This document shows positions 8,295 to 62,126 of a stretch of DNA of 64,000 nucleotides, one piece after another. Origin of the DNA: an uncultured Candidatus Peribacteria bacterium (lineage in GTDB: Bacteria; Patescibacteriota; Gracilibacteria; UBA1369; GWF2-33-10). The position numbers and the translations under genes are program-made. Numbering within the stretch: position 1 is the first letter of the stretch; each line of letters starts with the position of its first letter. The notes below the pieces were generated by a model. It ran no database searches and was not told the origin of the DNA. It saw nothing but the letters and a program-made list of their open reading frames with translations. The DNA is taken from contig CAZEDK010000001.1 in the NCBI GenBank assembly GCA_964511025.1, positions 24,191-88,190 on the forward strand, written 5' to 3'.

Positions 8295-8453
8295 GGTCTT
8301 GGCAAAAAATAAAACACCTACCTTGCACTATCTTTAGCTTTATTTTCTTTGTTGCAAATCCAGTCATTTATCTCGATAAACTCCTGTATTTGAACAAAAG
8401 AATCTAAAACAAAATCTAGCACAATTTAGGTATCTTATTTTTTACCAAGACCC
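8294..8453. mobile_element. MITE-like element, family 1, copy 1 (160 bp, about 27-bp terminal inverted repeats, TTA direct duplication)
   Basis: Ends are GGGTCTTGGCAAAAAATAAAACACCTA … TAGGTATCTTATTTTTTACCAAGACCC. It is flanked by TTA (8291-8293) and TTA (8454-8456). It differs at only 4 of 160 positions from the reverse complement of 38688-38847. Confidence 0.78.
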
Positions 8454-8556
8454 TTAAGCTTTTTTGAAACTTTTCCGAATTTCAAATAGTGTTAAACTAT
8501 GATATAATTAATAGAAGAGTTCTTTTGAGTAACTACTCACCGCTATTTGCATTCTT

Positions 8557-8689
8557 GTTTGTCATTCCAGACCTGATCTGGAATCCAGTAGGGTAAACTT
8601 GTTTGTATTTCAAATCTAAACAATGTTTCAAGGCTATCGCAACATAATGCGCAATTCCTAGATCCCAGACTGGATCTGGGATGACAAAC
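8557..8689. mobile_element. MITE-like element, family 2, copy A (hairpin-terminated, 133 bp)
   Basis: Left end GTTTGTCATTCCAGACCTGATCTGGAATCC. Right end GATCCCAGACTGGATCTGGGATGACAAAC, the inverted counterpart. Each end is itself an 8-bp-stem hairpin. The internal blocks (CAGTAGGG.AAACT, TATTTCAA, AGGCTATCGC) are shared with 12918-13040. Confidence 0.65.
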
Positions 8690-8809: not shown

Positions 8810-11800
8810 ATGGGAGCAGCAAATACATCAACACCAGAAGGTAAAGAAAACCAATCATCTGTAGCACCGCTCAAAAGTTTAGACGATACTACAGACACAG
8901 AGGCTAATCCAACACCAGACAATAATGACGAGGGCGATTGTTTTATCGATTATGCGGATGAGTCTTCGCTTGAACCGATGCCGGCGAATGATACGCCTGC
9001 AGCAGAAACAAAAGTTGCCGAAGAAGTAAGAACGGAAGTAGCTGAAGTAGCGACAACAGCTATCGATATTCCAGCACTCAATCCATATCCTGAGATATTT
9101 ACATGGGAAGAGAAAGAAAACGCTAAATTTGCTGATTTACCAAATCATGAAAGACTCGCCATATCAAAATACCCTTATTTAATGGATCTTCTTCGTAATT
9201 TTGCTTTTTGCACATATACTTACAACCCAATAGAAAATATTGATTCTGTGAGTATTTCTTTTGGAAATGAAGAATTTCCACCAATGGATACATCTTCAAG
9301 TCTTGGGATGATGATGGCTAATGCAATAATACAAAAAATATATGAAACCATTGGCGTTGGCAGTGAGACAGTCACTAAAAGAACAGAAGATGAGAATGAA
9401 AAATTGCATTTAACTTGTAATGTACATACAAATTCTCAACAACCAAATATAGCAAAAATAACAGACCCAGCTAACAACAAGATAGGATTTGATGCCTTAT
9501 TATTAACAGTGGATCAATTCAGACAAAATAACAATCAAGGAACAACCATTACAGGAATATCTCTCACCTATGGCGAAGGAGCTATATTAGAGTTTCCAAT
9601 GGATAGACCTGATGAACCTCTGATGCTTGAGTGTATGCTTAGATTATTTTTCGATAAAACCGCGATACAAACATTATACAATGAAATAAAAGACAAAAAA
9701 CCTAAATATGAGCAGTGGCAAAAAAAAAGAAAAGGGACATATCCGCAAATTGCAATAATTTATCATCCAGCAGAATTAGATATCGATGAAAATAGCTTCG
9801 AACGTCTAAGCTCTCTACTAGAGCCTCAATTAGTCCAAAATGAAAGATGGAGTCAAGTTCAAGCAATTACTCTTGAAACCAATGGTGATGACCGGAAGAG
9901 TGCATTTGATTTGACTAACAATAACGAATTAAACACAGCAGAAACATTTTTAGAAAAAAATCCAGAAGCGATTTTGTCGGATTATACGATTAATGGAGAG
10001 ACAATATACGCAGGAGATTTATTAACGGAAGATGAGTTAGGGGAAACTCCAGCAGCATGGGAAGGAGCAGAAAAAATCGCAAGAGGTGAACAAGTTGAAC
10101 CGCTTGCATTGCTAGCTGCAGTTTCAGCAGATCACAGTGTTACCGCAAATCCACTTAACGCTAACCCGGAGTCAACAACAGGTGGGTCAAAAAAGACAAT
10201 TGTAATTAGACATAACCCTGAGAATGATGCAGATGGTAGAAGATTCCAATGGCAACCCGCAGACATTGGAAAAGTAATTAGAATAAAAAAGGCACCAACA
10301 CCAACTTTACAGAATCAAGCAGGTATTATAGGTGATGATATGTCTACATCTAGCCCAGCACGATTTGGCACTGAAAAGCCTCTGCAACCCAAAAATGAAG
10401 TTTTAGCTAGTTTGAATGAGGCTCACGATACTTCAAGGGCGATGAATGAAGAAGGCAAACAATTAGGACGACAAGCTTTTACAGCTTTATCAGGCACACC
10501 TGACTCAGTATCAGGATATTCTACAAATAATGATTCACCACTTAGAATAGCTCATGCACCTGCGCCATGGGAAAATGGAAAAGAGTTGATATACGGTAAA
10601 GTTAAGCCGCCACAATCTATTTTATATCGAACTATCGCACCGCCATGGGAACCCGATACTATAGCTGTTACAATACAGCATTCTTCAAAACGACAGCCAC
10701 CAAAACCTATAATATTACAAGGCGCTGCAATCAATCCAGTAGCATATCAAACATTGCCTGAGTCGAGCATAAAGAAAAAGAATACAATAGTAGATATTGC
10801 TAGCTCGGATTTTTTGCCACCACCTTCTGCATTTAGCCCCCCTGACAAACAGAAACAGGCGAATCTCCCCAGCAGTAGCGGTCAAAATGGTAGTTCAGTC
10901 TACATAGTTCCTATTGCCAAACCAGCAAAAGATTCAACATCTAATACAGCTCTTCAAGTACCAACAAACGGAGGTAGTTTGCCTCCTGCGTTAAAATCTT
11001 CAACTAGATCCCAAGTCACATCGCAAAGAGCAGAACAAAATGAAGCAAATCAACTATCAAGCAAGCTAGCGAAGCTTCTTGGTAGCCAATCTACCCCATT
11101 GAACCCAAAACAATCTGGCTCTAAGCCTTCTGCATCACAAAAGAAAGAAGCACCTACAGGAACAGCTCCTTCTGTCGCATCAACGACAACTCCAAAAAAT
11201 GCACCGCCAACAGCTTCACTGCCAACCATAAAACCAACAGATACTCCAGCAGAAAAACAATTAACTTTTAGAACAGACGACGCTAACTCTACAAGCACCA
11301 TATCCCCAGTCCCACGATCACAAGACACACACTTAGCAGAAAGAAGGCGCGGTTTGCCAAAATGGGGTTACGCTATAGCTGCGACAGTTCTTTTTGGTCT
11401 TGGCGCTTTGGGAATACATTTACGCTCATCTGATATTCAAGTTGCAAGTAATGATGCTCCAACACCAACTCCAATAATTGCAAAAGCTGATCCAGTACCG
11501 GTTGTCAGTCGAGACTCTTCGTCGCCTCAGAGTGACACAAGGGACAGTGCTTCAAGTGCTACAGCAGAAAAAACAGATAGTTCTGTAATAACAGCACCTG
11601 CTAGCACTGAAGGAGCACAAACTGTTACCATCAACACAACTCGCAGGAAAAAAGCAGATCAAGTTTACGCCAAGATGTTAAAAGCTGCAGAAGAGAGTAA
11701 CATGAAATTAAAACCATTTTTGGAACAGTTTTTATCACCAAAGGCGAATCAAGCTCTTGGCGCGCGAGGTATTTCATTATCAGACTTTAATTCGAAGATG

Positions 11801-12901
11801 ACAACAGCAGGCTTAGCAATACCAACTGGCTCATCTCCACTTGATAATGTAACATTTGGCAACAACAAAGAAGCTTCAGCACTTGCGATGACATGGTCAA
11901 TGAATTCAGTTTATAATGTGAGCTCATCATATCCAAATGATGGAAAAGTTCATAAATCAATGGATGATTTCACGCGTGCTACAAGCATTCAACTAGCTGA
12001 ATTAAATGGAATATTTGATGACAAACAAGAAGCAACAGCTAGCTTAGAAATTGATGCAGTTAGCCCCCTTGACACCAGCCCGCCCGCCTGTACCGATTCG
12101 GGCAGGACTACATTCTGGCAAGAAGGGGGGCAGGGGGGATTTGATCCACAAACCGTTGTAAATGCCGACAACAGCAGTCCTGATCTAAGTACAGATAATG
12201 GATTACATGCAAATAGTGATACAAAAGCAGATCACAAAGTAAATTCCGCCCAATCAGCCATTTATCTGCCACTAAATAACGAGAAAGGTAGTCCGGAACA
12301 AATTAATGTAGTAGCAAATGCTATAAAAAACCGACCAACTAATGGTGCTGTTGAATTTGCTTTGCAAGACGGTACAGTAGTTTGTTATGCACCTACAGGA
12401 GTATATTCTGTATTTAACAAAGATGGCACACCAAATAACAGTTCACCTTATCTAGCAAGGCTCAACAGCAAAAAACCTGAAAACGCAGCAAGGTCGTTAA
12501 GGTCTAATCGAGACAATCCACTTGCAGGAGTATCATTTGAAGGATCTGCACCAATAGGCTATGCAACAATTGCACAACGTCAATTTATTGACGGCATCAT
12601 AGCTCAAGAAGAACCTGTGATTCATACCTATACAGATACTGACGACGATGCTGAACCGACATCTTCTGAAGAACCTGCAAACAGTCTTCTAGCACAAACT
12701 ACGAACGATCCATTTTTCCAAGAACTGGATAACAAAATAGACAGCTTATTGGCATCGCTAGAAAGCCCCCTTGACAAAGGGGGTCAGGGGGATTTCCCCA
12801 ACAATGGTAGCCTAATTGGCAGTTCGGATGCTTATGTTGTGGCTACAGCGAAAAACGAAGGAGTAAGCGATGTCAATTTTGGAGAGATTTTTGATGCGTG
12901 A
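8810..12901 (+). CDS. Large orphan protein (1363 aa): low-complexity, Pro/Ser/Thr/Ala-rich, one central TM helix, no recognisable domain
   Basis: An uninterrupted 4.1-kb ORF in an AT-rich genome cannot be chance. It has its own strong promoter. The TM segment WGYAIAATVLFGLGALGIHL is encoded at about 11351-11422 and is preceded by RRRGLPK. The second half is visibly richer in G+C than the neighbouring genes. Confidence 0.8.
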   Translation: MGAANTSTPEGKENQSSVAPLKSLDDTTDTEANPTPDNNDEGDCFIDYADESSLEPMPANDTPAAETKVAEEVRTEVAEVATTAIDIPALNPYPEIFTWEEKENAKFADLPNHERLAISKYPYLMDLLRNFAFCTYTYNPIENIDSVSISFGNEEFPPMDTSSSLGMMMANAIIQKIYETIGVGSETVTKRTEDENEKLHLTCNVHTNSQQPNIAKITDPANNKIGFDALLLTVDQFRQNNNQGTTITGISLTYGEGAILEFPMDRPDEPLMLECMLRLFFDKTAIQTLYNEIKDKKPKYEQWQKKRKGTYPQIAIIYHPAELDIDENSFERLSSLLEPQLVQNERWSQVQAITLETNGDDRKSAFDLTNNNELNTAETFLEKNPEAILSDYTINGETIYAGDLLTEDELGETPAAWEGAEKIARGEQVEPLALLAAVSADHSVTANPLNANPESTTGGSKKTIVIRHNPENDADGRRFQWQPADIGKVIRIKKAPTPTLQNQAGIIGDDMSTSSPARFGTEKPLQPKNEVLASLNEAHDTSRAMNEEGKQLGRQAFTALSGTPDSVSGYSTNNDSPLRIAHAPAPWENGKELIYGKVKPPQSILYRTIAPPWEPDTIAVTIQHSSKRQPPKPIILQGAAINPVAYQTLPESSIKKKNTIVDIASSDFLPPPSAFSPPDKQKQANLPSSSGQNGSSVYIVPIAKPAKDSTSNTALQVPTNGGSLPPALKSSTRSQVTSQRAEQNEANQLSSKLAKLLGSQSTPLNPKQSGSKPSASQKKEAPTGTAPSVASTTTPKNAPPTASLPTIKPTDTPAEKQLTFRTDDANSTSTISPVPRSQDTHLAERRRGLPKWGYAIAATVLFGLGALGIHLRSSDIQVASNDAPTPTPIIAKADPVPVVSRDSSSPQSDTRDSASSATAEKTDSSVITAPASTEGAQTVTINTTRRKKADQVYAKMLKAAEESNMKLKPFLEQFLSPKANQALGARGISLSDFNSKMTTAGLAIPTGSSPLDNVTFGNNKEASALAMTWSMNSVYNVSSSYPNDGKVHKSMDDFTRATSIQLAELNGIFDDKQEATASLEIDAVSPLDTSPPACTDSGRTTFWQEGGQGGFDPQTVVNADNSSPDLSTDNGLHANSDTKADHKVNSAQSAIYLPLNNEKGSPEQINVVANAIKNRPTNGAVEFALQDGTVVCYAPTGVYSVFNKDGTPNNSSPYLARLNSKKPENAARSLRSNRDNPLAGVSFEGSAPIGYATIAQRQFIDGIIAQEEPVIHTYTDTDDDAEPTSSEEPANSLLAQTTNDPFFQELDNKIDSLLASLESPLDKGGQGDFPNNGSLIGSSDAYVVATAKNEGVSDVNFGEIFDA

Positions 12902-12917
12902 TTACCTTGTCATTCTA

Positions 12918-13040
12918 GTTTGTCATTCCTGCGCAGGCAGGAATCCAGTAGGGCAAACTATCTGTGTATTTCAAGTTACAAAGGCTATCGCGATGTAATT
13001 AGCAGTTCTGGATCCCAGATCGGAGTCTGGGATGACAAAT
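12918..13040. mobile_element. MITE-like element, family 2, copy B (123 bp), same orientation as copy A
   Basis: Ends are GTTTGTCATTCCTGCGCAGGCAGGAATCC … GATCCCAGATCGGAGTCTGGGATGACAAAT. It is flanked on both sides by ATTACCTTGTCATTC (12901-12915 and 13039-13053), which suggests insertion into a pre-existing solo hairpin unit. Confidence 0.65.
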
Positions 13041-16953: not shown

Positions 16954-17157
16954 CTCTCAGTTCTCAACTCTCAGTTCTCAACTCTCAGCTCTCAGCTCTC
17001 AGCTCTCAACTCTCAGTTCTCAGCTCTCAGTTCTCAGCTCTCAGTTCTCAACTCTCAGTTCTCAGCTCTCAGTTCTCAGCTCTCAGCTCTCTCAGTCCCA
17101 AAGGGACCCCCTTGGGGCTCTCAGCTCTCAGCTCTCAGTTCTCAACTCTCAGTTCTC
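16954..17157. repeat. Heptanucleotide tandem array (CTCAGYT/CTCAACT, about 29 units) split by a GC-rich palindrome
   Basis: Read directly: ctcagtt ctcaact ctcagtt ctcaact ctcagct ctcagct … The central sequence CCCAAAGGGACCCCCTTGGGG lies at about 17097-17117. The array produces the spurious SQLSALSSQ ORFs in the track. Confidence 0.9.
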
Positions 17158-34490: not shown

Positions 34491-37340
34491 ATGATCCACA
34501 CCCTTTCCACCTTCCCAAAAGATCCAAACATTGATTATAAAGGAATCGGTTTACTTAATGACGCTCAAGAATTTCTCAAAATCAAAACTATTTCAGAAAT
34601 AAGAGCTGTTAAGAAGTTTTATCTCGAAGGTGTGAATGATGAAGAACTTTTGAAATTAAAAGATAAATTACTGGTTGAAGAAGTTTGGCAAGATTTCACG
34701 GTTGATAAAGATTTTTATAACAATCATCCAAATAAAATTGAAGTAGCTTTCAGAAAAGGCATGATGAACCCTGAGGTTCGAAGTCTTCTTGAAACCGCAC
34801 ATGAATTAGGTGTAACAAATTTACAAGCTGCAGATACATGCTGGGTCTACTATTTCTTTGGAAAAAATATAGATCAGAAAGAAATAGATAGCGTGATCAA
34901 TAAACTTGTAATGAATTCAACTACTGAAGAGATCAGAAAAGAGAATCCAGTAACACTTATAATTGAAGGATCAGAACACGAAATTGAAATTGTAAAAGTA
35001 AGAGAAATGAGTGATGAAGAACTTATGAAACTTTCAAAAAACACATTGTTTTTGACGCTCGATGAAATGCATACGATACAGAATTTCTTCAAGAATTTAG
35101 GTCGAGATCCATATGACTGTGAACTTGAAGTTTTGGCACAAAGCTGGTCAGAACACTGCGGACATAAGACTTTCAAAGCCAAACTTACAATCGACGGAAA
35201 AGAAGTTGAACCTCTATATCGAAGGCTCAAAAATGCGACGAAAGAAATCAATCACCCAAATGTAGTTTCAGCTTTCGTGGATAATTCCGGAGTGTGGAAA
35301 TTTGATGATAATTATGGAATATGTGGGAAAGTTGAGACTCACAATTCTCCTTCTGCTCTAGATCCATTTGGTGGAGCTGCAACAGGTAGCGGTGGAGTTT
35401 TCAGAGACATTGTTGGAACTGGTAAAGGAGCGAAAACAATTGCTTCAACTGATATATTTTGTGTAGGACAACCTGATATGGATGAATCTAAAATTCCAGA
35501 AGGATGCAAACATCCAAGATTTATTTTAAAAGGTTTGGTACGAGGTGTTTCCTCTTATGGGAATCCAATGGGTATTCCTACAACCAATGGCTCAGTACAT
35601 TTCCACGAAGATTTCAGATGCAAACCTACTGTAATTGTTGGAGCTTATGGATTAATAAAATTAGATAGAGCACAAAAAGGAGAAGCACAGGCTGGAAATT
35701 TGATCATGACTCTTGGTGGGAAAACAGGTCGTGATGGAATTCATGGCGCTACTTTTTCAAGCGCTGAAATGACAGGTGAAACATCTACAGTCAATTCTAC
35801 AGCAGTTCAAATTGGAGATCCGATTCAAGAAAAAAAAGTTTTTGATGCGATTTTGGATTTATCTGATCAGAATTTGATTAACGCAATTACAGATTGCGGG
35901 GCTGGAGGATTCTCATCAGCAATTGGTGAAATGGGAGCTATCACTGGAGTTGATGTTGAAATTTCAAAAGCTCCTCTCAAGTATAATGGACTTGCTCCAT
36001 GGGAAATCTGGCTTTCTGAGAGTCAAGAAAGAATGATCATTGCTGTTGATGGAAATAATTTAGATAAAATTCAAAAAGTTCTAGACAAACACTCCGTTGA
36101 AGGAGTTGTTTTGGGTAAATGTACCGAAGATGCTCAGTTAAAAATTACTTATAAAGGCAAAACTCTCGTTGATCTTCCAATGGAATTTGTTCATGAAGGA
36201 CTTAGTCAATTGAATCTTGAAGCGCATTTTGAAAAATCGAATTTTCCAGATCCGAGCGAAAATGAACTTATAAAAGAAAACTATACAGAAAGTTTACACA
36301 AAGTTTTGTCTCACCCGAATGTGTGCAGCAAAGAACCAATAATTGTAAGATATGATCACAATGTTCAGGGTACGGAAGTTCAGATGCCAATTTGTGGAAA
36401 CAAACATATTGGAGTCAATAATTCCAGCGTCCTTGAGCCTATTTTGGGTCATGGCAAGGGAATGATTATTTCTCATGGTTTAAATCCAATTTTAAATCGT
36501 ATTGATCCATATTTAGGTTCAAAATGGGCAATTTTTGAAGCTGTTTCCAACGCAATTTGCCAAGGAGCAAATCCCGAAAACACAGCTCTTATCGATAATT
36601 TCATTTGGCCAAAACCTGATAGTAAATTCATCGCTGACTTAAGTTTATCGATTGATGCCTGCTGTGATGTTTCAAAAATTTTCAAAATGCCATTTATATC
36701 TGGCAAAGACAGTCTGAGCTCGACATACAGAAAAGGTGATTTGACCGTTCATATTCCACCTGTGCTTTGTATTTCAACATTTGGGGTGGTGGATGATATT
36801 ACTAAAACAATTTCATCTCCATTCAAGAAAGCAGGGAATAAAATTTTATTAATTGGCGAGACAAAAGCTGAAATGGGAGGATCAATTTATTATGATATTA
36901 ATGGATACATTGGATCAAAAGTCCCAGATATCAATACTCAAATAGCATTAAAAACGTACAAAGCAATTTACAAAGCAATTCAGGAAGGTTTGATTAAATC
37001 TTGCCAAGATGTGAGTGAAGGAGGATTAGCGACAGCTGTGACTGAAATGTGTTTTGGATTTGATCTATGTGCTGAAATTGAATTAAATAAACTCTCAGTT
37101 CTCAGTTCTCAGTTCTCAGTTCTATTCTCAGAGAGTCCCGCCAGATTCATTTGCGAGGTAGAGACAAAAGATCTTTTGTCTCTAAAAGAAATTTTTGGAG
37201 ACATAGCTGTGAATATTATTGGTGAAATAAATAATTCAGATGAAATCGTTTTCAAAAGTAATGATGAAATTTTAATTCAAGATAAACGAGCAAATTTCAA
37301 AAAATCATGGCAACAACCAATGAGGAAGGTGTTTGGATAA
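34491..37340 (+). CDS. purL: Phosphoribosylformylglycinamidine synthase subunit PurL, with an N-terminal extension resembling PurS
   Basis: 949 aa. WSEHCGHKTF, ETHNSPSALDPFGGAATG and GKDSLS are PurL signatures. The extra about 200 N-terminal residues are discussed in the findings. Confidence 0.93.
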   Translation: MIHTLSTFPKDPNIDYKGIGLLNDAQEFLKIKTISEIRAVKKFYLEGVNDEELLKLKDKLLVEEVWQDFTVDKDFYNNHPNKIEVAFRKGMMNPEVRSLLETAHELGVTNLQAADTCWVYYFFGKNIDQKEIDSVINKLVMNSTTEEIRKENPVTLIIEGSEHEIEIVKVREMSDEELMKLSKNTLFLTLDEMHTIQNFFKNLGRDPYDCELEVLAQSWSEHCGHKTFKAKLTIDGKEVEPLYRRLKNATKEINHPNVVSAFVDNSGVWKFDDNYGICGKVETHNSPSALDPFGGAATGSGGVFRDIVGTGKGAKTIASTDIFCVGQPDMDESKIPEGCKHPRFILKGLVRGVSSYGNPMGIPTTNGSVHFHEDFRCKPTVIVGAYGLIKLDRAQKGEAQAGNLIMTLGGKTGRDGIHGATFSSAEMTGETSTVNSTAVQIGDPIQEKKVFDAILDLSDQNLINAITDCGAGGFSSAIGEMGAITGVDVEISKAPLKYNGLAPWEIWLSESQERMIIAVDGNNLDKIQKVLDKHSVEGVVLGKCTEDAQLKITYKGKTLVDLPMEFVHEGLSQLNLEAHFEKSNFPDPSENELIKENYTESLHKVLSHPNVCSKEPIIVRYDHNVQGTEVQMPICGNKHIGVNNSSVLEPILGHGKGMIISHGLNPILNRIDPYLGSKWAIFEAVSNAICQGANPENTALIDNFIWPKPDSKFIADLSLSIDACCDVSKIFKMPFISGKDSLSSTYRKGDLTVHIPPVLCISTFGVVDDITKTISSPFKKAGNKILLIGETKAEMGGSIYYDINGYIGSKVPDINTQIALKTYKAIYKAIQEGLIKSCQDVSEGGLATAVTEMCFGFDLCAEIELNKLSVLSSQFSVLFSESPARFICEVETKDLLSLKEIFGDIAVNIIGEINNSDEIVFKSNDEILIQDKRANFKKSWQQPMRKVFG
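37092..37133 (+). repeat. Heptanucleotide array (CTCAGTT x4-5) inserted in frame near the purL 3' end
   Basis: ctctcagttctcagttctcagttctcagttctattctcag encodes LSVLSSQFSVLFS. It belongs to the same unit family as 16954-17157 and 61651-61702. Confidence 0.85.
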
Positions 37341-37348
37341 AAAAATCT

Positions 37349-37377
37349 TTGACTGCAGAAAAACAATGATCTATACT
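37349..37377 (+). promoter_or_regulatory. Promoter of vapBC, with an adjacent 12-bp palindrome
   Basis: TTGACT (37349-37354), 17 nt, TATACT (37372-37377), followed by the perfect palindrome TGATATATATCA (37379-37390). Confidence 0.5.
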
Positions 37378-37404
37378 GTGATATATATCATCTAAAATAA
37401 TATC

Positions 37405-37632
37405 ATGGAAACTGCAAAAATATTTACAAATGGAAGAAGCCAAGCCGTAAGACTTCCAAAAGCATTTAGGTTTGACGGTGAGGAGGTTTTTATTAGTAAG
37501 ATAAAAGATATGGTCATTTTGACTCCAAAAACAAATAAATGGGATAAGATGAGAGAAAGTTTGGGTCAATTTTCAGATGATTTTATGATAGAAAGGAATC
37601 AACCTGAGCAGCAAATTAGAGAAAATTTATAA
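37405..37632 (+). CDS. vapB: VapB antitoxin (AbrB/SpoVT fold)
   Basis: METAKIFTNGRSQAVRLPKAFRFDGEEVFISK is the typical AbrB-type VapB N-terminus. Confidence 0.85.
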   Translation: METAKIFTNGRSQAVRLPKAFRFDGEEVFISKIKDMVILTPKTNKWDKMRESLGQFSDDFMIERNQPEQQIRENL

Positions 37633-37643
37633 ATTTAAGGATT

Positions 37644-38042
37644 ATGGAATATTTACTTGATACTAATATTTGTGTTTACTTAATAAATAAAAAAAACTAT
37701 AAACTTATTGATAAATTTGAAAGCGTAGATACAGAAAATATAAATATTTCAGCTATTACAGTGAGTGAATTAGAATATGGAATAGCAAAAAGTGAGTATC
37801 CAAATAAAAATCGTTTGGCATTAAATACATTTTTAACTCCACTAAATATTCTACCTTACGCTAATCATGTAGCTATATTGTACGGTGAAATAAGAGCATA
37901 TTTAGAAAAAAGAGGACAAGTAATAGGACCTTTGGATATGCTAATAGGGGCTCATTGCCTTTCGCTAAATCTTACTCTTGTCACAAACAACGAAAAAGAA
38001 TTTAACCGTATACCGAATTTGAGGGTTGAGAATTGGATTTGA
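37644..38042 (+). CDS. vapC: VapC PIN-domain ribonuclease toxin
   Basis: MEYLLDTNICVYL (first acidic PIN residue), SAITVSELEYG, and LTLVTNNEKEF near the C-terminus. Confidence 0.9.
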   Translation: MEYLLDTNICVYLINKKNYKLIDKFESVDTENINISAITVSELEYGIAKSEYPNKNRLALNTFLTPLNILPYANHVAILYGEIRAYLEKRGQVIGPLDMLIGAHCLSLNLTLVTNNEKEFNRIPNLRVENWI

Positions 38043-38048
38043 AATAAA

Positions 38049-38101
38049 AAATTTTAAAAATCATGGCAAGAGCTTATGAAAAAGGTGTTTGGATAAAAAA
38101 A
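38049..38101 (+). repeat. Duplicate of the purL 3' tail (direct repeat of 37293-37346)
   Basis: AAAAATCATGGCAA…AAGGTGTTTGGATAAAAAAAT is shared between the two sites. The copy still reads KSWQELMKKVFG-stop, against KSWQQPMRKVFG-stop at the true purL end. Confidence 0.75.
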
Positions 38102-38161
38102 TATTGTATAAAAGCTAAAATGTGGCTATTATATAGTTAGCATATATTTATCACACATAAA

Positions 38162-38431
38162 ATGACTACACAACTATCAATCAAAACAGATCCAAGGATT
38201 AAACAAGCCGCATCAAAACGGGCTGAATATGAAGGGATGACGCTAACCGCAATAGTAAATGTTTTTTTACGAGAGTATGCACATGGTAAATTTCAATTAA
38301 GTTTTATGAATATTGAAAATCAGCAACTATCAAAAGAATCTATTATGGAGTTTGATGAGATTTTTAAAAGTAAAAAAATTGTATCAAAGGCAAATCAAAT
38401 ATCACAGTATCTAAATAATCATAAATTGTAA
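38162..38431 (+). CDS. Putative antitoxin-like small protein (possible RHH)
   Basis: 89 aa. TTQLSIKTDPRIKQAASKRAEYEGMTLTAIVNVFLREY looks like an RHH/antitoxin. Its stop overlaps a downstream ATG (TAATG). Confidence 0.5.
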   Translation: MTTQLSIKTDPRIKQAASKRAEYEGMTLTAIVNVFLREYAHGKFQLSFMNIENQQLSKESIMEFDEIFKSKKIVSKANQISQYLNNHKL

Positions 38432-38686
38432 TGTTAATTTTAACTGAGTTTTTTCAAAAATATGAGTTAAATAAAGTTTCTAAATATTTTGACATAAAAG
38501 ATATTCAAATTCAAAGAAAATTATTTCATCCCAATCATTATTAGGCTGAAAAAAGATAAACTTATCGGTGAGAATTTATCTTTGAATAACAAATTGGCAG
38601 AAGCAAAAATCATATATAATCTCGAAATGATATTTGAAGATTTAAAAAATGATAAATATAGAAAACTACCTTTATAAAATTCCGTT
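38431..38686 (+). pseudogene. Possible degraded toxin partner (short ORF interrupted by a stop or frameshift)
   Basis: The ATG overlaps the antitoxin stop. It reads MLILTEFFQKYELNKVSKYFDIKDIQIQRKLFHPNHY-stop. A second frame then continues LKKDKLIGENLSLNNKLAEAKIIYNLEMIFEDLKNDKYRKLPL. No family was recognised. Confidence 0.25.
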
Positions 38687-38687
38687 A

Positions 38688-38847
38688 GGGTCTTGGCAAA
38701 AAATAAGATACCTAAATTGTGCTAGATTTTGTTTTAGATTCTTTTGTTCAAATACAGGAGTTTATCGAGATAAATGACTGAATTTGCAACAAAGAAGATA
38801 ACGCTAAAGATAGTGCAAGGTAGGTGTTTTATTTTTTGCCAAGACCC
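38688..38847. mobile_element. MITE-like element, family 1, copy 2 (inverted relative to copy 1)
   Basis: Flanked by TTA (38685-38687) and TTA (38848-38850). 156 of 160 positions are identical to the reverse complement of 8294-8453. Confidence 0.78.
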
Positions 38848-38852
38848 TTAGA

Positions 38853-38925
38853 CCTGACTCTTGTCACAAACAACGAAAAAGAATTTAACCGTATACCGAA
38901 TTTGAAAGTTGAGAATTGGGTTTAA
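38853..38925 (+). pseudogene. 3' fragment of a second vapC gene
   Basis: CCTGACTCTTGTCACAAACAACGAAAAAGAATTTAACCGTATACCGAATTTGAAAGTTGAGAATTGGGTTTAA is about 90% identical to vapC 37971-38042 and includes the stop. Only the last about 24 codons are present. Confidence 0.7.
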
Positions 38926-39596
38926 ATCTCTTTTGCTATTTTATGTAAACTTGCAATTATGTCAGCCTCAGTGGCATCTGCAGGAAGTATTTTATATCCA
39001 GAATTTTCTTTCGCGTATTGTTCATCTTTAACAGCTAACTGACTATCATCTCCAAAATTTTTTGCTTCATATAGATTACCATCCGTATCAAGTATACAAG
39101 AAAAACAATCTCCTGCATCTCCCCTATTCAAATCTGTACATTCTTCAGACAAATTAAATGGAAAACATTGAATAGCAAAAATCGTTGCTGTAGTTCCTAC
39201 ATTTGCCTGTCTTTCTGTTAGACCATCGTGCCTTGTCAGTTTATAGTCTTTATCATCAATTTTTATCAGTTTAAAAGGTTCTCCACATCTTACAACGCAT
39301 TCTAATCCTGTCAATTTTGCTACTAATTCTTTATCTATTTGAAATAGAGGCTCAAACTGTTTCACAAGACGTCTGTCTTTTAACCTTGCAGCAATATCTT
39401 CTCTTCCATTTCTACTAAACAATTCAGCGTAACCTTCCCTTAATTCTTTCGTTATAGGAGCTTGACGATTTTTTAACTCACAATATTTAGCTTCAAGCCA
39501 AGCTCTTGCTTTTCTAGCATCGCCATGAGCCTCTTTATCTAAAAATTCTTGAAAAGCTTCTGGAGATTGAAATTGTTGTAAAGACTGTTTAACCAT
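38922..39596 (-). CDS. Orphan Cys-containing 224-aa protein (function unknown)
   Basis: ATG start and a clean ORF on the strand opposite to the pur operon. Cys pairs at CVVRC and DCFSC. No recognisable motif. Confidence 0.6.
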   Translation of the reverse strand: MVKQSLQQFQSPEAFQEFLDKEAHGDARKARAWLEAKYCELKNRQAPITKELREGYAELFSRNGREDIAARLKDRRLVKQFEPLFQIDKELVAKLTGLECVVRCGEPFKLIKIDDKDYKLTRHDGLTERQANVGTTATIFAIQCFPFNLSEECTDLNRGDAGDCFSCILDTDGNLYEAKNFGDDSQLAVKDEQYAKENSGYKILPADATEADIIASLHKIAKEI

Positions 39597-39744
39597 AAAT
39601 TTATTAATTTAGCAAATAAATAACACATATAGCATAACATCTCTCTCTCTCTGTCAACATTAATCCAAATTTATGTTGTAATATCGTTTCCACCATCAAT
39701 CTAAATCTTTTATAATAATAGCGAGACTCACACAAAATTTGCTA

Positions 39745-39770
39745 AAAACTAAAGACTAACAACTAAAAAC
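39745..39770. repeat. Short heptanucleotide array (reverse complement of TTAGTTG/TTAGTCT/TTAGTTT) just upstream of purQ
   Basis: aaaaactaaagactaacaactaaaaac. Same unit family as 33584-33624, in the opposite orientation. Confidence 0.7.
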
Positions 39771-39777
39771 TTCCCCC

Positions 39778-40548
39778 ATGCCCCCAAAAGTCGGAATAAT
39801 ATTTACGGAAGGAAACAATCGAGATCAGGAAAGCTCTTATGCATTTGAAACTGCTGGAGCTGCAACTGAGCTTGTTTACTTGAATGAACTTAAAAACAAA
39901 GAAAAGAAATTAGACGATTATCAGATTTTGTTTTTACCTGGTGGGTTTACTTACGGGGACGATTTATTCTCAGCAAAAATTTGGGCTGCGAAATTAATGG
40001 CTTATTGCGAAGATCAATTAGCTAAATTTATTAACTCTGACAAACTTATAATTGGAGTGTGTAATGGATTTCAATGTTTGGTTCGACTTGGACTTCTCCC
40101 TTACGGCAATCTTGGAAAAATCGAAGCAACACTGACAAATAACGCTTCAGGACATTTCGAAGGAAGATGGATCAATGCAAAAATTGAAAAATCAAATTGT
40201 ATATTTACAAAAGGAATGGAAGGCAAGATATTAAGACTTCCTACATCTCACTGCGAAGGCAGATTTCTAGCACCTGAAATAGATTTGGAAAAAATAGAAA
40301 AATCAAATCAGGTTGTTATGCGTTATGTAGATGAAAATGGGAATCCAACACAAAATTATCCGCAAAATCCCAATGGATCAACGAATGCCATAACCGGTAT
40401 ATGTTCGCCAAATGGAAAAGTTTTTGGACTGATGCCTCATCCTGAATGCAATACAAAATGGAATCATTTTCCTAATTGGAATAATAAAAATGAAAGAGGA
40501 GGAGAAGCTTTGGAAATATTTCAAAATGCAGTCAGTTATTTTAAATAA
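39778..40548 (+). CDS. purQ: Phosphoribosylformylglycinamidine synthase glutaminase subunit PurQ
   Basis: LPGGFTYGDD, GVCNGFQ (nucleophile Cys) and MPHPE are class I amidotransferase and PurQ signatures. Confidence 0.93.
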   Translation: MPPKVGIIFTEGNNRDQESSYAFETAGAATELVYLNELKNKEKKLDDYQILFLPGGFTYGDDLFSAKIWAAKLMAYCEDQLAKFINSDKLIIGVCNGFQCLVRLGLLPYGNLGKIEATLTNNASGHFEGRWINAKIEKSNCIFTKGMEGKILRLPTSHCEGRFLAPEIDLEKIEKSNQVVMRYVDENGNPTQNYPQNPNGSTNAITGICSPNGKVFGLMPHPECNTKWNHFPNWNNKNERGGEALEIFQNAVSYFK

Positions 40549-41120
40549 TGAAGTTTACAATTGCAATTCTTGCCTCGGGAGGTGGAACTGATGCTCCATC
40601 AATTATTGAAATGTGTAAGCAAGAAAATATACATGTTGCATGTATTTTCAGCAATAAACCAAAGAATGGCGCTCTAGAAAAAGCAAAATTTTATAATATT
40701 GAAGGCGTTTATCTCGATGCAAAAGGTAAAACAAGAGAACAATATGACAAAGAAACTGTGAAAATTTTACAAGATAGAAATGTAGACCTAGTATGTTTAG
40801 TTGGATATATGCGAATTCTTAGTCCGTACTTTGTTCGTCAATTCCCAAATAAAATTTTAAATGTGCACCCGTCACTAATCCCAAAATATATAGGCATGAT
40901 GGGAGATGATATTCACAAAAAAGTAATAGAAAATGGAGATAAAGAAACTGGCATGACAATTCATATAGTAGATGAAGATGTTGATACTGGTGAAATCATC
41001 TGTCAAAAATCTGTTAAGGTTGGCAAGGCTGAAACAGTAGAATCATTGAGAAAAAAAGTTCAGGATTTAGAGAAAAAATGGTATCCGGAAGTAGTGAAGG
41101 ATTTTTTCAGGGTGTTTTGA
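40548..41120 (+). CDS. purN: Phosphoribosylglycinamide formyltransferase PurN
   Basis: ILASGGGT, LNVHPSLIP, and GMTIHIVDEDVDTGEII. The start overlaps the purQ stop (TAATG). Confidence 0.92.
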   Translation: MKFTIAILASGGGTDAPSIIEMCKQENIHVACIFSNKPKNGALEKAKFYNIEGVYLDAKGKTREQYDKETVKILQDRNVDLVCLVGYMRILSPYFVRQFPNKILNVHPSLIPKYIGMMGDDIHKKVIENGDKETGMTIHIVDEDVDTGEIICQKSVKVGKAETVESLRKKVQDLEKKWYPEVVKDFFRVF

Positions 41121-41172: not shown

Positions 41173-41216
41173 ATATTAGTGTATACTGTACTCATGAGTA
41201 CAGTATACACTAATAT
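41173..41216. promoter_or_regulatory. 44-bp perfect palindrome centred on the probable AbiEi start codon (candidate operator or RNA hairpin)
   Basis: ATATTAGTGTATACTGTACTCA|TGAGTACAGTATACACTAATAT, checked base by base. The centre lies between 41194 and 41195, and the ATG is at 41194-41196. Confidence 0.6.
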
Positions 41217-41763
41217 AACAGGAAAAAGAATTGCCATTCTTGCCAAAATGAACGAAGAAATTTTTCACATTCATGATCTTGCTTTATTATGGAGAATTAA
41301 AGATAAAAACCTAGTTCACACTACCCTCAAAAGATATTGCAAATACGGAATTATAAATCGTATTTACAAAGGCTTTTATTCACTTAAAAAAACTATAGAT
41401 CTTGATCCTTATTTGCTTGGGATAAAAGCCATACACAATTATGCATACATAAGTACGGAAACTATACTCGTAAAAGAGGGCATAATTAGTCAAATCATAC
41501 CAAAGATAACTTTAATAAGCTCTAAATCCACAAAATTTCAAATAGGATCAAACAACTATGCAAGCAGGCAATTAAAAGATATTTTTTTATATAATTCAAC
41601 AGGTATTGAAGAAAAAAATGGGATACAAATAGCTACAAAAGAAAGAGCAATCGCAGATCTTTTATATTTCAACCCAAGAGCATATTTAGATACTCGAGAT
41701 CTAATAAACTGGAAAAAAGTTAAATCCATTCAAAAAGAAATAGGCTACACTTCAAATCTTTAA
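41194..41763 (+). CDS. AbiEi-family type IV antitoxin (transcriptional regulator)
   Basis: Sits immediately upstream of an AbiEii toxin gene. The winged-helix-like N-terminus and size (about 190 aa) fit AbiEi. The start is GTG 41179 (track) or ATG 41194. Confidence 0.75.
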   Translation: MSTVYTNITGKRIAILAKMNEEIFHIHDLALLWRIKDKNLVHTTLKRYCKYGIINRIYKGFYSLKKTIDLDPYLLGIKAIHNYAYISTETILVKEGIISQIIPKITLISSKSTKFQIGSNNYASRQLKDIFLYNSTGIEEKNGIQIATKERAIADLLYFNPRAYLDTRDLINWKKVKSIQKEIGYTSNL

Positions 41764-41778
41764 ATTTTATAAATACTT

Positions 41779-42528
41779 ATGATTACACCAAATCCACACG
41801 ATGCAATACACAAAGCTTGGCTCTATAGATTACTTATTAACCTAAATGAAAATGAAATTATAAATAGAATGTATGCTTTCAAAGGGGGAACCTGTGCAGC
41901 TATGAGAGGTTTACTAAATAGGTTCTCAGTCGATTTGGATTTTGAAATAATAGAATTTATGACAGAAATAGAAATGCTAACTTTTCGTAAGGAATTAGAA
42001 AAAATCTTCAACAAACTAAACTTAAAAATCAAAGATCAAAGCAAAACAGTACCACAATACTTTTTAAAATATGAAAACAAAGAAAATCAACGAAATACAA
42101 TTAAATTAGATTTCATACCAAAAACTGCTAAATCAAATGAGTATGAGTTAGTAAGATTCCATGAAATAGATAGAATAATAAATTGTTATACTATTGAAAC
42201 AATGTTTGCAAACAAGCTAGTAGCTATAATTGATAGATATGAAAAACACAAAATAATTGCAGGGCGAGATCTTTACGATATCCATTATTTTTTTATTCAA
42301 GGTTTTAAGTTTAACGAGCGAATAATAAAAGAAAGAACCAAATTAAATACAGTAAAATTTTTTCAAAAATTAATAAGTTTCGTAGAAAAACAAATAACTC
42401 AAACTATAATAACCCAAGATTTAAGCTATCTCATTGAAGCAAAGGAATTCCAAAAAATAAGAAAAACTCTCAAAGAAGAAACCTTGATGTTTTTAAAAGA
42501 TCAACTTATCCTACAATCATCCAAATAA
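41779..42528 (+). CDS. AbiEii/AbiGii-family nucleotidyltransferase toxin
   Basis: FKGGTCAAMRGLLNRFSVDLDFE is the nucleotidyltransferase motif of AbiEii (GG…S.D.DF). 249 aa. Confidence 0.88.
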   Translation: MITPNPHDAIHKAWLYRLLINLNENEIINRMYAFKGGTCAAMRGLLNRFSVDLDFEIIEFMTEIEMLTFRKELEKIFNKLNLKIKDQSKTVPQYFLKYENKENQRNTIKLDFIPKTAKSNEYELVRFHEIDRIINCYTIETMFANKLVAIIDRYEKHKIIAGRDLYDIHYFFIQGFKFNERIIKERTKLNTVKFFQKLISFVEKQITQTIITQDLSYLIEAKEFQKIRKTLKEETLMFLKDQLILQSSK

Positions 42529-42550: not shown

Positions 42551-43594
42551 GTGGCAACATACGCAGAAGCTGGCGTTGATATTGAAAAAGGCGACAAATG
42601 TTCAGCCCTTGCTTATGCTGCCGCGAAAAGAACTTTTGCAGGTCGCGAAGGTAAAATTGGATCTGGAGTTGTAATCGAAGGTGGCTTTACCGGAATGATG
42701 GATTTTGGTGATTTTTATATTGTTCAGAATTGTGACGGAGTTGGCACAAAGACTCTGGTTGCAAAAATGATGAACAAATATGATACACTTGGTTATGATC
42801 TGCTGGCAATGGTTGCAGATGACATGATTGTAGTTGGAGCTGAATGTATTTCCATTACAAATACTATCGACATATATCCGGCTGATGAAAATGCTATTTG
42901 CGAATCAATGAAAGGCCTTGAAAAAGCATGTTTAGAAGAAAAAATTGTAATTCCTGGCGGAGAAATTGCAGAACTCAGCGGGATTATTGAGAAAGGCGCT
43001 TTTAGCTGGAATACTGATGGAATTGGAATTTTGGAAAAAGATAAATATATTGATACAAAAGATATTAAACCTGGAGATCTTGTGATTGGACTTGAAAGTA
43101 GCGGTATACATTCAAATGGCTTAAGTTTAGCTAGATATGTGTTGAGAGAAAAATATGGAGAAAATTGGGCAAAAGAAGATTTTGGGAATGGAAAATTCTG
43201 GGGAGAAGTTATCCTTACGCCAACAAAAATTTATCACAGAGCTATTCTTGGTCTTACTGGAGAATACAAAGAAGCAAGAAAAGTGGAAATAAAAGGCATT
43301 TGTCATATAACAGGAGGTGGAATACCTGGCAATTTACCAAGAATTCTAAAAGCAACAGGATTCGGTGCAAATCTAGATAACTTAATAGAACCGCAAGAAG
43401 AGTTTAAAAAATTAATAGAAATCGGCAAGGTATCGCGAGCTGAAGCTTATAAAACCTGGAATATGGGAATAGGTATGGTGCTTGTTATAGATCCAAAAGA
43501 TGAAGAACTGGTAAAACATCATTTTATGACAAAAAACATCAAAGCTCAAAAAATTGGCGTAATTACAAAGAAAGAAGGGATTTTTATTAATTAA
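42551..43594 (+). CDS. purM: Phosphoribosylformylglycinamidine cyclo-ligase PurM
   Basis: YAEAGVDIEKGD, CDGVGTK, DDMIVVGAE and SSGIHSNGLSLAR. GTG start. Confidence 0.93.
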   Translation: MATYAEAGVDIEKGDKCSALAYAAAKRTFAGREGKIGSGVVIEGGFTGMMDFGDFYIVQNCDGVGTKTLVAKMMNKYDTLGYDLLAMVADDMIVVGAECISITNTIDIYPADENAICESMKGLEKACLEEKIVIPGGEIAELSGIIEKGAFSWNTDGIGILEKDKYIDTKDIKPGDLVIGLESSGIHSNGLSLARYVLREKYGENWAKEDFGNGKFWGEVILTPTKIYHRAILGLTGEYKEARKVEIKGICHITGGGIPGNLPRILKATGFGANLDNLIEPQEEFKKLIEIGKVSRAEAYKTWNMGIGMVLVIDPKDEELVKHHFMTKNIKAQKIGVITKKEGIFIN

Positions 43595-60859: not shown

Positions 60860-60934
60860 GGCGACGTCGCCAAGTGGTAAGGCATCGGTTTGCAAAACCG
60901 CTACACGTCGGTTCGATCCCGACCGTCGCCTCCA
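60860..60934 (+). tRNA. tRNA-Cys (GCA)
   Basis: Hand-folded. Acceptor GGCGACG/CGTCGCC, T arm GTCGG-TTCGATC-CCGAC, anticodon loop TTGCAAA, and an encoded CCA. Confidence 0.88.
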
Positions 60935-60939: not shown

Positions 60940-61002
60940 AAAATACAGGGATTAGGGATAAAAATACAGGGATTAGGGATAAAAATACAGGGATTAGGGA
61001 TA
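60940..61002. repeat. 21-bp tandem repeat x3 (AAAATACAGGGATTAGGGATA) between the two tRNA genes
   Basis: Read directly; the period is 21 (TACAGGG at 60944, 60965 and 60986). Each unit contains the heptamers AGGGATT and AGGGATA. Confidence 0.9.
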
Positions 61003-61077
61003 AGTATAAAGTATTAAGGGAAATGTGGAAGAAAAGCCCTTTATACATTATACCAATCCCTATATACTTAAAAAAAT

Positions 61078-61166
61078 GCCCGGATGGCGGAATTGGTAGA
61101 CGCGCAGGACTTAAAATCCTGTTTCCGTTTGCGGAAGTGTGGGTTCGATTCCCACTCCGGGCACCA
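61078..61166 (+). tRNA. tRNA-Leu (TAA), class II with a long variable arm
   Basis: Hand-folded. Acceptor GCCCGGA/TCCGGGC, anticodon stem CAGGA/TCCTG with loop CTTAAAA, variable arm TTCCG-TTTG-CGGAA, T arm GTGGG-TTCGATT-CCCAC, and an encoded CCA. Confidence 0.88.
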
Positions 61167-61178: not shown

Positions 61179-62126
61179 CTAGAATCTATTTATAACACTC
61201 CCTCCACCTATAGCAATAGCATGAGACGCATTTTTTGGCACATATACTTCAATTTCATGTTCTTTTAAAAGTTTCCTGATTGCATCCAAAATCTCTTCCA
61301 TCAAAATCAATTTTCCGACCAATATCACTTCTTTTACCATATAAGCTTTTGTGGCAAATATGATATTGGTTGCTATAGCCTGAGCAACTAAATTAACTAT
61401 ACCTACAGCTAAATCAGCCTTACTAAAATCAATATTTCTAACTAATTTCCCCAAATTTGAAGCTGTATTATCTTGCGACACAATACCTATTGAAGATCCA
61501 ACTATCTCACCAACACTTAAATCTACTTTTTTAATATCCCCCTTTTTAAACATTTCCTTCAGCTTCAAAATATCTGTTTCACCAAGTATTTCTTTGCACA
61601 AACCCAAAAAAGTTCCACCACCAATCCCCGTGCCACCAATATGCTGGACAGAGAGCTGAGAGCTGAGAGCTGAGAACTGAGAACTGAGAACTGAGAACTG
61701 AGTTCGCGGAGTATTTACTTCCACCTCAGCTCTCAGCTCCCCGCCAGAATGATGTCGGGCTGGTCGACTCTCAGTTCTAACTAAAACCATACATGTCCCC
61801 GTCCCCATACTAACCGTCAAGAACTTATCTTCTCTCAAATCATTTTTTGCTAAATAATAAGCTCCTCTGCCGATAGCATCTATTTCTGGAATTTTAGTTA
61901 TATCTATATTAGATATGCTATTTTCAAAAAATTGTGTTTTACCACCTGTAATAAATATTTTATCTATATTTTTCAAAGAAATTTTGCTTTTTGTAAAAAA
62001 ATCTCTTACCGAATTAACAGATTTAAACTGAAGCGCTTCAAAACTCTTTATTTCATTTATTAAAGAATTTTTCCATACAACCATATCAACAGTAGACGCC
62101 CCAAAATCAAAAGAATAATACTTCAT
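61179..62126 (-). CDS. coaW: Type II pantothenate kinase-like ASKHA ATPase (CoaW/fumble family) carrying an in-frame repeat insertion
   Basis: DFGASTVD (phosphate-1), ITGGK, VSMGTGTC and GGTGIGGGTFLGL, plus a C-terminal AIAIGGG. The order matches staphylococcal-type PanK. About 40 extra residues lie between GTGT and GGTGIGGG. Confidence 0.78.
   Translation of the reverse strand: MKYYSFDFGASTVDMVVWKNSLINEIKSFEALQFKSVNSVRDFFTKSKISLKNIDKIFITGGKTQFFENSISNIDITKIPEIDAIGRGAYYLAKNDLREDKFLTVSMGTGTCMVLVRTESRPARHHSGGELRAEVEVNTPRTQFSVLSSQFSALSSQLSVQHIGGTGIGGGTFLGLCKEILGETDILKLKEMFKKGDIKKVDLSVGEIVGSSIGIVSQDNTASNLGKLVRNIDFSKADLAVGIVNLVAQAIATNIIFATKAYMVKEVILVGKLILMEEILDAIRKLLKEHEIEVYVPKNASHAIAIGGGSVINRF
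61645..61781. repeat. Composite repeat insertion inside coaW (heptamer array, inverted arm, GC-rich 24-nt core)
   Basis: AGCTGAG/AACTGAG x7 at 61651-61702. Inverted arm CTCAGCTCTCAGCTC at 61725-61739. Core CCCGCCAG-N7-TCGGGCTGG at 61740-61763. CTCTCAGTTCT at 61768-61778. Confidence 0.85.

Follow-up and report, generated by a model that had tools for sequence, protein, structure and literature searches.

How did two toxin–antitoxin (TA) cassettes, each followed by the severed tail of another gene, come to lie inside a purine biosynthesis operon? The question is raised by the junction between purL and purQ in an uncultured Candidatus Peribacteria bacterium, a member of the candidate phyla radiation (CPR). 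We analyzed 64,000 nucleotides of its contig CAZEDK010000001.1 (positions 24,191 to 88,190), called the window here, in which all coordinates are counted. On the plus strand, purL (34491–37340; a PurSL-type phosphoribosylformylglycinamidine (FGAM) synthase of 949 aa with the Pfam domains AIRS, AIRS_C and FGAR-AT linker) is followed by a vapBC cassette, then by a probable RelB-like antitoxin gene with a dead toxin gene, and, beyond a gene on the minus strand, by purQ (39778–40548, plus strand; the glutamine amidotransferase subunit, Pfam GATase_5, E = 4e-82). A preliminary description of this DNA had proposed that an attachment site at the end of purL is regenerated with every cassette gained, as in a small integron, or that the junction is a hotspot of homologous capture. 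In our analysis the leftover purL and vapC tails are most likely scars of recombination and not a reusable attachment site. The history that we favor, with moderate confidence, is a stacking of two TA haplotypes of the junction by recombination that relied on homology at one end and on an illegitimate joint at the other.

Gene-tail repeats and their joints

The end of purL is present twice. Copy A (37292–37349, plus strand) is the functional purL tail with its stop codon and 9 nt beyond. Copy A′ (38048–38105, plus strand) lies behind vapC, where a repeat of the purL tail had been described. The two form a 58-nt direct repeat with 83% identity in the repeat search and 84.5% identity over 58 nt in a BLAST of the window against itself (E 2e-9 to 2e-12). 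The same BLAST gave no third copy of the purL tail in the 64 kb. The identical blocks of 14 nt (AAAAATCATGGCAA) and 21 nt (AAGGTGTTTGGATAAAAAAAT, the longest) that had been reported are both present in both copies. They map to conserved codons of the PurL tail (K-S-W and K-V-F-G-stop, most invariant in the alignment), so coding constraint explains them without invoking a site.

In the purL frame, A′ reads K S W Q E L M K K V F G stop (KSWQELMKKVFG-stop), which agrees with its earlier description as a diverged PurL tail. Its sequence is that of a dead fragment, because there is an in-frame TAA just 5′ of KSW and a Leu replaces a Pro that is invariant in three aligned PurL sequences. The joint that brings A′ behind vapC, J1, lies at 38042–38047 (plus strand). 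Here the vapC stop codon and its flank meet the purL-tail fragment. Homology to vapBC of the relatives L001 (MFXJ01000016, a Candidatus Peregrinibacteria metagenome-assembled genome, MAG) and L017 stops at 38046, homology to the relative L014 begins at 38042, and the 4 nt AAAT (38042–38045) are common to both sides.

The vapC tail is also present twice. Copy B (37966–38043, plus strand) is the tail of the intact vapC. Copy B′ (38849–38926, plus strand), found by repeat search and BLAST, is the tail remnant of a second vapC allele, stop codon included. B and B′ are 91% identical over 78 nt in the repeat search and 93% over 73 nt by BLAST, and B′ is 83–87% identical to the vapC tail of L001 and L017. 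B and B′ differ at five positions, and at four of these B′ agrees with L001. The two pairs of repeats are interleaved: the order is A, vapB, vapC ending in B, A′, ORF89 (open reading frame 89, the antitoxin gene) with its downstream sequence, and B′. The copies are spaced by 756 nt (A/A′) and 883 nt (B/B′). The joint in front of B′, J2, is at ~38678–38681, with ~2–3 nt common to both sides.

B′ is interrupted by a 162-bp palindromic element (38687–38848) with inverted-repeat arms of 80 nt and the ends GGGTCTTGG...CCAAGACCC. The probable first 8 nt of B′ lie on the other side of it (38679–38686, plus strand); this assignment, made by eye in an alignment to vapC with the element removed, is weak. 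A second copy at 8293–8454 is in the opposite orientation and 97.5% identical. The flanks are TTA/TTA at the copy in B′ and TAA/TAA at the other, and resemble 3-bp target duplications. The element is short and non-coding, with terminal inverted repeats, near-identical copies and target-site duplication, and so qualifies as a miniature inverted-repeat transposable element (MITE). Its RNA fold has −78.5 kcal/mol (z = −11). The window contains no partner transposase. A mazF-like gene (7932–8294) borders the second copy, whose first base appears to complete the TAG stop codon of that gene.

The two cassettes and the right half of the junction

The first cassette consists of vapB (37405–37632, plus strand) immediately 5′ of vapC (37644–38042, plus strand), with a gap of 11 nt. 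VapB is an antitoxin of the AbrB/SpoVT type with 75 aa (Pfam MazE_antitoxin, 37.7 bits; NCBIfam VapB equivalog, 114.6 bits, cut-off 100). VapC is a PIN-domain toxin of 132 aa (Pfam PIN, E = 2e-19), and its NCBIfam match (188.2 bits, cut-off 140) is the tRNA(fMet)-specific endonuclease VapC equivalog. A PIN toxin and a small antitoxin gene adjacent and upstream are both present, which is the gene content of a VapBC-family type II TA system. The system is probably active and autoregulated. A perfect palindrome in front of it, TGATATATATCA (37379–37390, plus strand), is conserved in L001 and is likely the operator of VapB. The stretch 37146–38046 is colinear with purL–vapB–vapC of L017 at 73% identity, and the window and L001/L017 have in common the 64-nt spacer, the −10 hexamer and the palindrome.

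Both cassettes carry promoter-like sequences of their own. It had been claimed that a −35/−10 pair follows each purL tail at the same offset, and both pairs do begin 9 nt past the stop codon. The first (TTGACT-17-TATACT, 37349–37377, plus strand) scores 10/12 in the promoter scan, whereas the second (TTGTAT-17-TATTAT, 38104–38132, plus strand) is weak, with 8/12, and falls under the scan threshold. The scan gave 12 promoter-like sites in the region against a shuffle expectation of 13.1, so a promoter call alone carries little weight. The conservation of each hexamer pair in the matching relative offers better support than the consensus match: L001 has TTGCTT-17-TATACT in the place of the first and L014 has TTGTAA-17-TATTAT in the place of the second. 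A homology of the spacers IG1 and IG2 past their first ~12 nt was considered and rejected, as an identity of ~52% in AT-rich DNA is unconvincing.

The second cassette begins with ORF89 (38162–38431, plus strand), which is intact. The window and L014 copies independently match NCBIfam RelB_ParD and RelB_DinJ with E values of 1e-4 to 2e-4 (21–23 bits, under the cut-offs of 45–60); for Pfam RelB, E = 0.11. An AlphaFold2 model from the single sequence is of low confidence (predicted local distance difference test score of 57). The product is probably a RelB/DinJ/ParD-like antitoxin. It shares 90% aa identity with its L014 homologue, whose gene overlaps the start of an intact 122-aa gene. The homologue of that gene in the window (38431–38677, plus strand) was recognized by alignment and three-frame translation and is a toxin pseudogene, with a 121-nt internal deletion and a frameshift relative to L014. 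The intact 122-aa protein has no significant sequence match in Pfam, NCBIfam, PHROG or PDB, and by these searches it would belong to no recognized toxin family (RelE/ParE etc.). The ratio of nonsynonymous to synonymous divergence (dN/dS) of ORF89 between the window and L014 is about 0.1, which indicates purifying selection although the toxin partner is dead. As an orphan antitoxin, ORF89 may guard against re-entry of the matching toxin and thus have an anti-addiction role, comparable to that of orphan immunity genes.

By BLAST, the window segments 38042–38509 and 38513–38679 correspond to L014 positions 6–473 and 599–765 with 88–89% identity. Because this colinearity with L014 is uninterrupted, A′, the spacer, ORF89 and the dead toxin can be read as one block, which in L014 is sited after the end of purL.

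The right half of the junction appears to have been turned over too. ORF224 (38922–39596, minus strand) is convergent with the cassettes and matches no family in Pfam, NCBIfam or PHROG. Next to it, at 39604–39735 (minus strand), is a 43-codon ORF left over from the 5′ part of another minus-strand gene, whose intact form in L014 is ORF106 (BLAST 39622–39718 to L014 1076–1174, 73%; match extended to 39622–39900). ORF224 would thus have replaced the rest of an ORF106-like gene. A promoter-like sequence, TTTCCA-18-TATAAT (39687–39716, plus strand; 10/12 in the scan), lies upstream of purQ. Because purQ is 2.4 kb from purL and behind a convergent gene, it is probably read from this promoter. No terminator-like sites were found in a scan of the junction region, and an Rfam search of 37200–39800 gave no match even at E ≤ 1.

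The junction in related genomes

In most of ~85 PurSL-type loci from genomes and metagenomes, the gap between purL and purQ is 0–15 nt. It is also 0–15 nt in L096, L097 and L098, members of the wider clade found through PurQ. In nearer relatives the junction takes several states. It is empty, with 118 nt, in L002 (MFXK01000016, like L001 a Candidatus Peregrinibacteria MAG), L018 and L019. L001, L015, L016 and L017 have vapB–vapC, then ORF100 on the minus strand, then purQ (gap 1241 nt in L017). L014 has the purL tail, the ORF89 homologue, the intact 122-aa toxin gene, a 67-nt remnant of an antitoxin tail, ORF106 on the minus strand and purQ. The window has both cassettes, with a gap of 2441 nt. 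Empty, single-cassette and double-cassette states are all seen in this comparison, which the preliminary description had suggested making, and its proposal of a serial gain of TA cassettes at a purL–purQ hotspot is supported: different cassettes sit in different relatives. It had also named two simpler pictures, a fixed arrangement and a local duplication unrelated to the cassettes. The arrangement is not fixed, and the position of A′, exactly at a cassette boundary, sets it apart from an unrelated local duplication.

Two further sequences extend the variation. In L099 (1–263), purQ is preceded by at least 263 nt of non-coding DNA and not by purL, and in L100 (3–383) a non-purL gene, Bro/DinD-like by eye only, ends at the start of purQ. 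The region upstream of purQ is by these comparisons unstable across the clade.

L014, recovered from sample SRR22387948, is the closest relative (PurQ 80% identical to the window) and probably represents the state in which only the RelB-like cassette follows an intact purL end. Its first bases match purL and not the end of vapC. Over the 19 codons available, its purL tail stays in frame and retains each of the seven tail residues that are invariant in the PurL alignment. At L014 763–829, the toxin stop codon is followed by the 67-nt antitoxin-tail remnant (O′), which is 75% identical to the intact antitoxin tail (O). From this alignment it appears to be a third scar left by a gene tail, of the type seen in A′ and B′.

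The remnants differ from their intact partners by 7–25% (identity 84% for A/A′, 93% for B/B′ and 75% for O/O′ in L014). Such divergence fits different alleles rather than fresh target duplications or attachment (att) cores. Ages of the cassettes can be estimated from synonymous sites. Between the window and L014, the proportion of synonymous differences (pS) is 0.34 for ORF89 (synonymous divergence dS 0.45) and 0.62 for purQ (dS 1.29; Fisher's exact p = 4e-4), and the fragments of the dead toxin are still 88–91% identical to the L014 gene. Because ORF89 is less diverged than purQ and even the dead toxin has kept this identity, the RelB-like block would have been shared between the two lineages well after their divergence. 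Between the window and L001, pS is 0.53 for vapC, 0.60 for vapB and 0.67 for purL. Because this divergence is about that of housekeeping genes, vapBC would either have resided in the wider clade for a long time or have been transferred long ago.

Favored history and alternatives

The purL–purQ junction of this lineage seems fairly probably to be a recombination hotspot at which promoter-bearing type II TA islets occur as alternative alleles. This is close to the homologous capture that had been offered as an alternative to an integron-like site. The window would hold two haplotypes head to tail, with A, vapB and vapC/B as unit 1 and A′, the RelB-like antitoxin, the dead toxin and B′ as unit 2. 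To form such a stack, DNA of a related lineage with the other junction haplotype would enter the cell and pair by homology on one side, either at purL (left) or from the vapC tail to purQ (right). The other side would be joined illegitimately at a microhomology of a few bases, that is, by homology-facilitated illegitimate recombination. A cassette would in this way be added rather than replaced, and the truncated tail of the displaced gene copy would stay as a scar. At J2, the RelB-like cassette would have displaced most of an earlier vapBC, leaving B′. At J1, the vapBC unit and the RelB-like unit would have been made adjacent, leaving A′. The older cassette would later have eroded: the toxin lost 121 nt, the MITE entered B′, and the antitoxin was kept by purifying selection. 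Further right, the minus-strand gene would also have been replaced in part.

On balance, the two joints probably record at least two recombination events. The recombination route, the order and direction of the events and the uptake of DNA are what we infer from the scars. An attempt to polarize A against A′ by the outgroups L014, L001 and L002 gave no direction, since the informative positions split evenly. Genes for the ATPase and platform of a Type IV pilus, and RmuC, are present in the window; these would be compatible with DNA uptake and prove nothing.

Several observations weigh against this history. Compared by eye with the L014 tail, A has 85% and A′ 88% identity, a near tie that favors neither order of events and neither side for the anchor. 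The four-of-five count for B′ is not significant (binomial, one-sided p ~0.19). The short overlaps at J1 and J2 fit a microhomology at an illegitimate joint, and in DNA with 25–35% G+C they are also expected by chance. Both joints are known from assembled sequence alone; exact-protein look-ups of the window VapC, VapB and ORF89 returned no contigs, and with them no independent assembly of the joints. The L014 contig begins 58 nt before the purL stop codon, ~5 nt from the equivalent of the left edge of A′, and its upstream context rests on 5 nt matching purL and on the intact reading frame. Only four occupied or empty haplotypes are known, and the relatives are distant (PurL 71%, PurQ 80% at best). 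The 71% is the aa identity of the window PurL to PurL of L001 and of L002, on which the placement of the window in a CPR bacterium is based; a metagenome scan gave no relative closer than 69%, and a search for homologues of the PurL C-terminus gave only distant partial proteins with at most 54% identity. The predicted intermediate, with purL, the RelB-like cassette and a vapC-tail remnant, was found in no genome. Natural transformation would have to be presumed for this organism. Lastly, none of the three informative joints (J1, J2 and the joint of toxin and antitoxin tail in L014) is more than 5 nt away from a toxin stop codon, and the window and L014 have the same endpoint on the toxin side despite different downstream partners. 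Random illegitimate joints do not predict such clustering; short intergenic spacers in a compact genome could be the simpler explanation.

The strongest of the alternatives, although we regard it as improbable, is a tandem duplication in situ. A 756-bp unit from the purL tail to the vapC stop codon would have been doubled through J1, and the interior of the second copy would later have been replaced by the RelB-like cassette. In form, the order A..B A′..B′ is that of a tandem duplication; the copies are similarly spaced, and a single joint suffices for the duplication itself. However, A′ belongs to one 88%-identical block with L014, where it reads as the real purL end, and so it travels with the RelB-like cassette and not with vapBC. 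Replacement of the interior would need a crossover within the 55-nt tail, while far longer purL homology is available at copy 1. The intact tail B holds four of the five changes relative to the outgroup L001, though it is the copy under selection. The illegitimate joint J2 would still be required, which leaves this route no more parsimonious than stacking.

The position of the joints and the kind of remnant left behind might instead point to a dedicated mechanism. In one form, sharply bounded TA cassettes would be moved by tail swapping, each inserting into the last 55–85 nt of the upstream gene and supplying a replacement tail. Three tail remnants that are independent of one another (from purL and vapC in the window and from the antitoxin in L014) hint at this, yet we find it very unlikely. 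Slightly less probable still is site-specific capture, in which the purL tail would be an attachment site of integron or phage type, the cassette would bring the replacement tail, and the recombinase would be encoded elsewhere. In its favor, vapBC lies between direct repeats that share identical blocks of 14 nt and 21 nt, both cassette types begin within ~12 nt of the purL stop codon and share AAAAAAT-TTG there, all three tail remnants are 55–85 nt long, and the joints are close to toxin stop codons.

Several observations speak against site-specific capture. No integrase, transposase, resolvase or other recombinase domain was found in ORFs of at least 120 aa across the 64 kb, and the purL-tail motif occurs nowhere else in the window; a nearby recombinase and a repeat beside other TA cassettes, as the preliminary description had suggested looking for, were thus not found. 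L017 and L014 hold a cassette without a second purL tail after it, the longest matches there being at most 9 nt and at chance level. The idea of an integron-like site regenerated with each cassette is not borne out by these single-cassette genomes, and the direct target repeat that integrative elements of gene 3′ ends leave at every occupied site is absent from them. The cassettes have no common end site: vapBC in the window is followed by a purL tail, the second cassette by a vapC tail and the L014 cassette by the tail of its own antitoxin. The A-rich nonamer ATAAAAAAT at J1, considered as a mark of cassette ends, is at background frequency (14 found against 10.3 expected). The identical blocks are conserved PurL codons, and a copy divergence of 7–25% does not fit att cores. 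There is no intI next to the array and no common end site of the attC type, and the cassettes are not promoterless.

The least probable alternative, and one we give very little weight, is a chimera in which the metagenome assembler concatenated a vapBC strain and a RelB-like strain through the purL tail: the window does come from a MAG, the two haplotypes occur separately in relatives, and an independent Logan contig with identical PurQ (L095, sample SRR4343435) breaks within ORF224, but J1 with its 4-nt overlap is in neither single haplotype and a k-mer assembler would need spanning reads to make it, the longest identical block of A and A′ is 21 nt, and the decay of A′ (the in-frame stop codon and the change of Pro to Leu) fits a pseudogene and not the functional purL of a second strain.

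Relation to known systems

The stacking of TA haplotypes that we favor resembles the effector–immunity arrays from type VI secretion systems (T6SS) in Vibrio cholerae (Kirchberger et al. 2017, PMC5361080). In this sequential or C-terminal displacement at polymorphic-toxin loci, an incoming module shifts its predecessor downstream along with a fragment of the conserved upstream gene. The older module loses its toxin and retains its protective gene, and no recombinase takes part. Homology-facilitated illegitimate recombination is the route proposed in that study, which sets the process explicitly apart from integrons. Orphan arrays of Rhs and contact-dependent inhibition (CDI) systems, as cited there, follow the same pattern of displacement. 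Like these arrays, the window has a gene-tail fragment (A′) before the displaced module, alternative modules at one locus in relatives, and a protective gene (ORF89) that was kept while its toxin was lost. Unlike them, its anchor is the housekeeping gene purL and not the constant part of a secreted toxin or its delivery gene, its modules are type II TA systems that work within the cell and carry promoters of their own, only two units are present, and there is a vapC-tail scar as well. By this analogy the locus would work like a displacement array without being a member of the Rhs, CDI or T6SS families.

Homology-facilitated illegitimate recombination is described in natural transformation by de Vries & Wackernagel 2002, Prudhomme et al. 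2002 and Meier & Wackernagel 2003, as cited in PMC5361080, and also in PMC3240628. One homologous anchor and a joint at a microhomology of a few bases give rise to insertions, deletions or duplications beside the anchor. In the present case the mechanism is read from the scars, and an anchor on one side, competence and a donor would have to be presumed. Chromosomal TA islets between core genes (PMC13617665, Mol Biol Evol 2026) are tiny, consist of TA genes only and are without mobility genes. They are proposed there to spread by homologous recombination at flanking core genes, with the toxin becoming defective first and decay following. The erosion of the second cassette in the window, with the toxin dead and the antitoxin kept, agrees with this picture. 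As far as it was read, that report covers presence, absence and pseudogenes, and no stacked alleles with duplicated core-gene tails; a further difference is that the host here is a CPR bacterium and the islets are within the pur operon.

In integron arrays, as here, new cassettes are beside a fixed point and older ones further off. The window differs in that it has no intI, attI or attC, its cassettes bear promoters, and no regenerated site is seen in single-cassette genomes. Integrative elements of gene 3′ ends, such as those in tRNA genes or the lambdoid phage 21 and e14 in icd, leave a displaced copy of the gene end after the insert. They carry an integrase gene, and the repeat lies on either side of each occupied site. 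The order of intact gene end, insert and displaced end copy is the same in the window; unlike in those elements, no integrase domain was seen and the repeat is not at every occupied site.

Other features of the window

The pur operon continues downstream of purQ with purN (40548–41120, plus strand), an AbiEi/AbiEii-like gene pair (41179–42528, plus strand) and purM (42551–43594, plus strand), as assigned from the ORF list and domain searches. The AbiEi/AbiEii pair between purN and purM is a second TA insertion in the same operon. A perfect 44-nt palindrome, ATATTAGTGTATACTGTACTCATGAGTACAGTATACACTAATAT (41173–41216), lies across the predicted start of the AbiEi-like ORF. Two genes for toxins of the MazF/PemK type (6963–7328, minus strand; 7932–8294, plus strand) adjoin dnaA (5439–6884). 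At least five loci of TA type are present in these 64 kb of a small genome: two MazF/PemK, vapBC, the RelB-like remnant and AbiE.

Within purL, a perfect 26-nt palindrome (37159–37184) lies ~150 nt 5′ of the stop codon. A 7-nt tandem repeat (TCTCAGT / CTCAGTT; other strand GAGAACT) is found at three sites of the window: in purL at 37093–37131 (~6 units), at 16954–17157 (~20 plus 6) and at 61651–61702 (~7). The array in purL falls where PurL of the relatives differs, and gain or loss of a unit would shift the frame. A direct repeat of ~130 nt with 75% identity (8550–8688 and 12911–13039) flanks an ORF of 1363 aa (8810–12901) in which no Pfam domain was found. A perfect 21-nt sequence repeated three times in tandem, AAAATACAGGGATTAGGGATA (60940–61003), lies between tRNA genes at 60860–60931 and 61078–61163.

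Significance

Current views are not overturned by this locus; it presents a known process in an unusual host and operon setting. For gene callers and assembly checks, duplicated gene tails like these can be misleading. The insertions split a purL–purQ pair that most relatives keep translationally tight, and purQ would therefore need its own promoter. The RelB-like block would be a concrete case of cassette exchange between lineages later than the divergence of their genomes. If the stacking history is right, sequential displacement would not be confined to secreted polymorphic toxins but would also act on intracellular type II TA modules, with a housekeeping gene as their anchor. The junction would then be a compact record of how selfish TA islets are gained, stacked and eroded in a CPR bacterium that is streamlined and uncultured, within one of its essential biosynthetic operons.

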